Origin: Escherichia coli
GTDB taxonomy: Bacteria; Pseudomonadota; Gammaproteobacteria; Enterobacterales; Enterobacteriaceae
Reading direction: 5' to 3' (one strand)
Length of the DNA: 702 bases
NCBI RefSeq assembly: GCF_003334385.1
Contig: NZ_QOWN01000148.1
The translations under genes and the position numbers were made by a program. Positions 1-702 of the stretch are shown here, one piece after another (within the stretch, counting starts at the first letter, position 1; the number at the start of each line of letters is the position of its first letter). Below the pieces are notes generated by a model. The model was not told the DNA's origin and did not search any database. It saw only the letters and a list, made by a program, of their open reading frames with translations.

Positions 1-667
1 CCGCCGTCGCGCTTTTAGTACTGATATATACATCGTGGATTTTGCGTCGCGCATGAGCCCAGCATCCTGCTTCCGTCAACGCGCCGCCTTCACGTTCGGC
101 ACTGAACAGCCGATCGTAACCATTAAACGCATCTGCCTGCAGGATACCCCGGAAGGGACGAAGGTGCTGCTCCGGATGTTTACCCTGATGATCCGGTGAG
201 TAGGCGAACCAGACCGCCGGAGGCTCTGGCGAACCGGCATTCCTGTCATCCCGGACATACGTCCAGATATATCCTGTTTTCGCCTTCTTCCTGCCCGGCG
301 CCAGTACCTTTACCGGTGTGTCGTCAGTGTGAAGCTTGAAGGTATTCATCACGTAACGGTACAGGGCATCATTCAGTGGCGTCATTAACTGGCAGCACTC
401 GTCAACCCAGTTGGAGAGTAATGCACGGCTCAGTTCGACGCCCTGGCGGGCAAAGATTTCACTCTGACGATACAATGGCAGGTGTTCGCAGTATTTTCCC
501 GTTAACACGCGGGCAAGTAACCCCGGGCCCGCGACACCACGCTCTATCGGACGGGACGGTGCTTCAACGATGCAGTCACATTTTGTACAGGCTTTTTTTA
601 CCCGTTCTGTGCGGATCACTTTCAGGGCTCTTCCGCAACCTGGGTGGAGATTTTCATGCCAGTGGAC
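1..667 (-). CDS. tnpC: IS66-family transposase (TnpC/ORF3-like DDE transposase), internal fragment; 3' end continues beyond the left window edge, 5' side closed by tandem stops at 668..673 (probably frameshifted)
   Basis: Reverse-strand translation in the frame with codons ending at + strand 667 gives 222 codons with no stop: [222 protein letters not shown]. Motifs I recognise as IS66-family signatures: Cys/His-rich zinc-finger-like segment (572..646), [10 protein letters not shown] (455..484), HTDDTPV with the first catalytic Asp (about 311..331), YVRDDRN (239..259), AVWFAYSPD (191..217), [10 protein letters not shown] with the second catalytic Asp (116..145), CWAHARRK (41..64). No in-frame ATG lies upstream within the window, which is why an ATG-to-stop ORF finder misses it. 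Confidence 0.85.
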
Positions 668-702
668 TCATTACCCTCTGCCTGAGTAGTTCAAATCCTG
701 CT
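1..702 (-). mobile_element. Interior of an IS66-family insertion sequence (transposase-coding portion only; no terminal inverted repeats in the window)
   Basis: The whole window is covered by an IS66-type transposase reading frame plus its upstream continuation in another frame. In IS66-family elements tnpC is the third and largest ORF, so the element ends and the tnpA/tnpB ORFs are expected outside the window (tnpA/tnpB to the right, the 3' IS end to the left). This is inference from family organisation, not seen in the sequence. Confidence 0.7.
1..702 (-). pseudogene. Probable frameshifted IS66-family transposase: upstream segment in a second reading frame (657..701, ...[15 protein letters not shown]) joined to the main frame (1..667) by an apparent 1-nt frame change near 668..673
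   Basis: The main frame is preceded by tandem TAA TGA stops (minus-strand sense; + strand 668..673). A second frame on the same strand is open from the right window edge to a TGA at 654..656 and ends ...LLRQRVM. Read together, ...LLRQRV / [12 protein letters not shown] resembles the conserved LPRE-x-VV-(x)n-C-x-C-G region that precedes the zinc finger in IS66-family transposases. That is the pattern expected from a 1-nt indel, not from a real gene boundary. Confidence 0.5.

Follow-up and report, generated by a model that had tools for sequence, protein, structure and literature searches.

The 702 bp stretch of DNA analysed here (the window) raises the question of whether a long minus-strand frame, absent from the list of its open reading frames, represents a gene, and where such a gene would begin and end. 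Translation of the reverse complement of positions 1–667 gives 222 codons without a stop (667..2, minus strand), and two in-frame stop codons lie directly upstream of this frame at 673–668. Stop-free runs of at least 222 codons in any of the six frames arose in 6 of 5000 base shuffles, and the significance of the frame is carried by its matches to profiles (E-values 1e-64 and 8e-58). The sole listed ORF of at least 60 aa, a 60 aa ORF at 76..258 on the minus strand, lies in another frame inside the transposase sequence, overlaps the profile-supported frame and is most likely spurious. The ORF list is silent on the 222-codon frame because it cannot hold a frame running off the window. An earlier note on this DNA had given this reason correctly; however, the frame also lacks a start because another insertion sequence, ISEc38, has inserted at position 625/626.

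The same note had described the frame as part of an IS66-family transposase encoded on the minus strand, and this reading was borne out. The 222 aa translation matched the NCBIfam family NF033517 (transpos_IS66) with an E-value of 1e-64 and 219 bits against a curated cut-off of 180, the Pfam family PF03050 (DDE_Tnp_IS66) with an i-Evalue of 8.3e-58 over model positions 1–169 of 284, and the PHROG transposase family 688 with 1.4e-106. At the DNA level, window positions 1–631 are 96–97% identical to genes annotated as ‘tnpC: IS66 family transposase’ on many E. coli chromosomes and plasmids, with matches in 3928 of the 5426 complete E. coli genomes and further ones in plasmids of Escherichia, Klebsiella, Salmonella and Shigella. 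In the protein collection the family yielded at least 8000 matches, with the architecture PF13007 + PF13005 + PF03050 + PF13817. Near relatives, annotated in RefSeq as ‘IS66 family transposase’ or ‘IS66-like element ISEc43 family transposase’, show 96–97% amino acid identity to the 208 IS66-derived residues of the translation, and the near-relative TnpC proteins of Enterobacteriaceae share with it the DDE_Tnp_IS66 domain and the HTDD, QAD and CWAHARR motifs. In contrast to the complete TnpC of Enterobacteriaceae, the window holds codons 166–373 only; ISEc38 disrupts the gene, as does ISEc45 farther on, beyond the window edge. The feature is thus an internal fragment of an IS66-family tnpC (1..625, minus strand; codons 166–373 of 535), which takes in the second zinc-finger cysteine pair and the DDE domain through CWAHARRK and runs off the left window edge. 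It is a degraded copy of an already known and very common element.

To define where the IS66 sequence ends, the window was aligned with the intact tnpC of E. coli STEC1590 and with the ISEc38-interrupted tnpC of E. coli SK6988. Up to about position 628 the window tracks the intact gene, and from there to 702 it is identical to the SK6988 sequence; DNA homology to IS66 tnpC stops at 625, placing the junction at 625/626. The protein matches agree with this boundary, as both the NCBIfam and the PHROG 688 matches begin at residue 14 of the translation, with none earlier, and the Pfam domain begins at residue 43. The first 14 codons of the 222-codon frame are ISEc38 DNA that is open by chance in the tnpC frame. 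Hence, of the 1–667 originally assigned to IS66, positions 1–625 are indeed IS66, but 626–667 belong to the end of ISEc38. A ‘PGCG’ in the translation that resembled a zinc-finger motif was likewise rejected, its codons being ISEc38 DNA.

The remaining 77 bp (626..702) constitute the end of ISEc38 that lies downstream of its transposase gene, and they are 100% identical to annotated copies of this ISL3-family element, with the inverted repeat GGCTCTTCC...; both of the 100% matches retrieved lie under genes annotated as ‘ISL3-like element ISEc38 family transposase’. Matches to this end were found in 2947 of the 5426 E. coli genomes, and 462 records carry a copy with at least 99% identity. The names ISEc38, ISEc45 and IS186 are those of the RefSeq annotation. 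The terminal inverted repeat (GGCTCTTC...) is situated at 626–648. The transposase gene stops a short way inside this repeat: its last 15 codons, together with a TGA stop at 656–654, occupy 654..702 on the minus strand (annotated CDS at 4659–6278 of the SK6988 locus). In SK6988 the complete element, annotated as ‘ISL3-like element ISEc38’, measures 1722 bp (4631–6352) and is bounded by 23 nt inverted repeats, GGCTCTTCCGCAACCTGGGTGGA and TCCACCCAAGTTGCGGAAGAACC, which form a 91% complementary pair; the former is the one present in the window. The SK6988 copy is flanked by the direct duplication ACTTTCAG (4623–4630 and 6353–6360), whose 8 bp counterpart in the window is the target octamer at 618..625. 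An 8 bp duplication is typical of ISL3 elements. The window holds only the last 77 bp of the 1722 bp element. The insertion follows codon 165 of the 535-codon tnpC, after ...LELVSSA, and falls between the two cysteine pairs of the zinc finger. When the ISEc38 pieces of the metagenome contig OAWU01000802.1, described below, were compared with the NCBIfam model transpos_ISL3, a 380 aa piece scored 261 bits, above the cut-off of 180, and a 164 aa C-terminal piece scored 114.5 bits, below it.

The ISEc38 end in the window also contains an ATG that shares bases with the transposase stop codon (ATGA) and is read outward, through the inverted repeat. In E. coli E2865 (3501–3532 of the locus) this ATG is in frame with an ISEc8 tnpC that was hit at about codon 5, and the 523 aa ‘ISEc8 family transposase’ of RefSeq begins inside ISEc38.

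An intact sibling of the interrupted gene was found on another metagenome contig, OAWU01000901.1, with 99.8% DNA identity to window positions 1–628. This IS66 copy has the gene order tnpA–tnpB–tnpC, with ORFs of 141, 116 and 535 aa, and terminal inverted repeats of 25 nt (GGTAAGCGTCAACGG... and ...CGCTTACC) which begin with GTAAGCG. Inverted repeats with this beginning and an 8 bp target duplication are typical of IS66-family elements; the ends of the element lie outside the window. Residues 15–222 of the window translation correspond to residues 166–373 of its TnpC and are identical at 208 of 208 positions. A conservation alignment of 14 rows was built from 12 homologues (58–97% identical to the intact copy), the intact TnpC and the window fragment. 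In this alignment D266/D267 of HTDD and D330 of QAD are invariant, and E461 in DNNxAE is nearly invariant. The two DDE aspartates that the earlier note had placed in the window are indeed present there. As a catalytic role for these Asp and Glu residues is deduced from their conservation and from what is generally known of DDE transposases, they are to be regarded as the putative catalytic residues of IS66 TnpC. In the literature covered, no usable residue-level DDE assignment for IS66 TnpC came to light. Querying the PDB with the sequence of the intact TnpC returned no solved relative, and the AlphaFold2 model of the intact protein, with a mean pLDDT of 55 and values below 50 across the catalytic domain, was unfit for fold search or residue mapping.

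The six motifs quoted in the earlier note are all present in the translation, but to call them a full set was an overstatement, as the Glu motif and the first cysteine pair of the zinc finger lie outside the window. TnpC homologues carry leucine-zipper (PF13007) and zinc-finger (PF13005) regions. In the window, the second cysteine pair (CTKCDC) is left, while the first (CPECGG) and everything upstream of it have been removed; the N-terminal leucine-zipper region and the first cysteine pair are gone because ISEc38 inserted between the zinc-finger cysteine pairs. The window gene is therefore a fragment of a member of the IS66 TnpC family and not a complete member. Sequence alignments also revealed a 6 bp in-frame deletion site at 557..558 (minus strand), where Ala-Pro has been lost from the conserved EAPAPSRPI. 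The deletion is common to the window fragment and the intact sibling (around 11875 in OAWU01000901.1) and absent in 12 of 12 other aligned homologues. It falls in the stretch that separates the zinc finger from the DDE domain, and the sibling element carrying it is apparently intact.

The setting of the window was examined in contig OAWU01000802.1, which contains it with 100% identity at 3896–4597; contig OAWT01000247.1 matches at 99.9%. An exact-match scan of metagenome contigs gave three loci, and the exact-match scans of genome contigs for the deletion allele and for the junction gave no match. In OAWU01000802.1, the 3' tail of the IS66 element (1932–2150) is followed by ISEc45, an IS110-like element (2151–3597; 99.8% identical to E. 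coli copies) which is inserted in tnpC 63 codons before its stop, and then by the tnpC fragment (3598–4520). ISEc38 begins at 4521 and is itself split by a copy of IS186B/IS421 of 1338 bp (5042–6379), which matches E. coli copies at 100% identity. The two parts of ISEc38 on either side of IS186 overlap by 11 bp, which looks like a target duplication. As had been predicted, the Glu motif lies beyond the left edge of the window, DNNxAE being situated 88 codons to the left in this contig. The expectation that leftward extension would supply the rest of the gene held in part: 99 more tnpC codons including DNNAAE are present, but they are then cut off by the ISEc45 insertion.

On its other side, ISEc38 ends at 7591 and is joined to internal sequence of an IS2 orfB, a fragment of which runs from about 7592. 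The far flank, ACTATTGC, lies inside IS2 and differs from the duplication ACTTTCAG on the tnpC side. Neither tnpA and tnpB nor the N-terminal 165 codons of tnpC are adjacent in this contig, which implies a later rearrangement, and the tnpA–tnpB–tnpC order seen in the intact sibling is not found next to the fragment. The mismatched far flank suggests that two ISEc38 copies recombined or that an adjacent deletion occurred. A 195 bp flank of this contig occurs almost exclusively on E. coli plasmids and, together with the IS content (IS186, ISEc45, IS2), suggests that an E. coli plasmid would be the host of the pile.

Two further observations were made around these elements. The ISEc45 copies in the six E. 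coli matches listed are all annotated beside a ‘transposase domain-containing protein’, and in the STEC1590 locus an IS110-family fragment (2664–3500) abuts the end of tnpC. Because IS110-family elements choose their targets by means of a guide RNA, the IS66 3' region may be a programmed target of such elements. Beside the pile, OAWU01000802.1 also encodes an AraC-family regulator of 277 aa (1049–1882, plus strand). HilD and HilC are the NCBIfam families that it matches best, with every score far below the cut-off. Its best tblastn match among 72,556 plasmids was 45% identical and no near DNA match was found in the complete E. coli genomes; this regulator is poorly represented.

Taken together, we are highly confident that the window carries a tnpC fragment split by ISEc38, an inactivated remnant within a pile of insertion sequences. 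Its sequence identity, boundaries, domain content and nesting were observed directly. The window is best explained as the junction of two insertion sequences, an internal piece of IS66 tnpC at 1–625 (minus strand) and an ISEc38 end at 626–702. ISEc38 would have transposed into tnpC at the 8 bp target ACTTTCAG, splitting the zinc finger between its cysteine pairs, and its inverted repeat happens to add 14 stop-free codons to the tnpC frame, which brings the stop-free frame to 222. In OAWU01000802.1 the same tnpC is interrupted again near its 3' end by ISEc45, and the far side of ISEc38 meets the IS2 fragment; we infer the order of these insertion events. The presumed outcome is an inactivated remnant which keeps the two aspartates and has its Glu motif just beyond the window. 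The fragment is probably non-functional because it has no start, no N-terminal DNA-binding and dimerisation regions and, in the contig, neither its native C-terminus nor its partner genes. Scans of the window found no Rfam match at E ≤ 1, no promoter-like site and a single terminator-like hairpin (631–649, plus strand), which lies inside the ISEc38 inverted repeat and is within chance expectation.

Two other readings were weighed. The length and conservation of the frame, with 208 of 208 residues identical to the intact sibling, would also be expected of an undamaged, functional IS66 tnpC that simply extends past the window, with its N-terminus just to the right of 667 and the remainder to the left. 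However, the two in-frame stops at 673–668 stand in its way, tnpC homology ceases at 625 where ISEc38 begins, and in OAWU01000802.1 ISEc45 cuts the gene a second time and the 5' part is not adjacent; the alignment breakpoint and this contig refute such a reading, which we consider to have next to no chance of being correct. An equally negligible chance is given to the junction being a metagenome assembly chimera of joined repeated IS sequences. The exact window was found in metagenome contigs only, the genome-contig scans being without a match, yet an identical junction exists in nine complete E. coli genomes, in SK6988 with a proper 8 bp target duplication, and it appears in contigs of two separate assemblies, OAWU and OAWT.

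A slightly better, though still very poor, prospect is that a truncated TnpC is made, for instance by read-through from the ISEc38 transposase gene, and that it binds partners or DNA and modulates intact IS66 copies. An in-frame GTG at 619–617 could in principle start a truncated product of 353 aa, the ISEc38 transposase gene and the tnpC fragment share a strand and are separated by just 28 nt, and the fragment, free of frameshifts and internal stops, is 99.8% identical to the intact sibling copy from the same assembly as OAWU01000802.1. In E. coli E2865, moreover, the ATG in the same ISEc38 end gives rise to an annotated in-frame fusion with ISEc8 TnpC. The counterpart of this ATG in the window (657–655), however, is out of frame and its reading stops after 11 codons, and the window has no promoter-like site. 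In OAWU01000802.1, IS186 has disrupted the ISEc38 transposase gene, ISEc45 sequence stands in place of the C-terminus of the frame, and the conserved AERALR reads AEKALC. The high identity would be accounted for equally well by a recent insertion.

The junction is not unique to the window. The nine complete E. coli genomes with the identical tnpC::ISEc38 junction carry it on the chromosome in SK6988 and on plasmids in the eight others. They are like the window in insertion point, orientation and ISEc38 end, and window positions 573–702 are identical to SK6988. The IS66 background of the junction-bearing genomes is different, being about 78–88% identical to the window over 1–300. In SK6988 both tnpC halves flank ISEc38 with its target duplication, which is not so in OAWU01000802.1. 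At informative sites the window is of the STEC1590 type to about 520 and of the SK6988 type at 526–625, and the intact sibling copy on OAWU01000901.1 shows this same succession. E. coli IS66 copies are patchwork mosaics: when window positions 1–625 were compared with the SK6988, STEC1590 and sibling copies, the pairwise type identity ranged from about 65% to about 99% per 100 bp block. Judged from such sequence patterns, frequent recombination among IS66 copies is indicated as the probable source of this mosaicism. The shared junction may stem either from recombination between IS66 copies after insertion or from independent insertion, given that the intact sibling has the same pattern and that mosaics are general among IS66 copies.

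Strict site specificity of ISEc38 was rejected, as other copies have unrelated flanks, one with a psiE fragment nearby and one at about codon 5 of ISEc8. Two looser ideas, namely that ISEc38 prefers IS66-family tnpC genes as targets or that truncated TnpC made by read-through inhibits intact IS66 copies in trans, we regard as improbable. Some support for a tnpC preference comes from the presence of the junction on two IS66 backgrounds about 88% identical to each other and from another ISEc38 at about codon 5 of an ISEc8 tnpC.

For annotation, the window is to be corrected to a tnpC pseudogene fragment plus an ISEc38 end and not a single 222-codon gene. The case also illustrates that an open frame may overrun the end of homology into an adjoining element, and that gene boundaries should be set by the end of profile or DNA alignments and not by stop codons. 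Nested piles of insertion sequences of the kind found in OAWU01000802.1 mark recombination-prone regions of E. coli plasmids.
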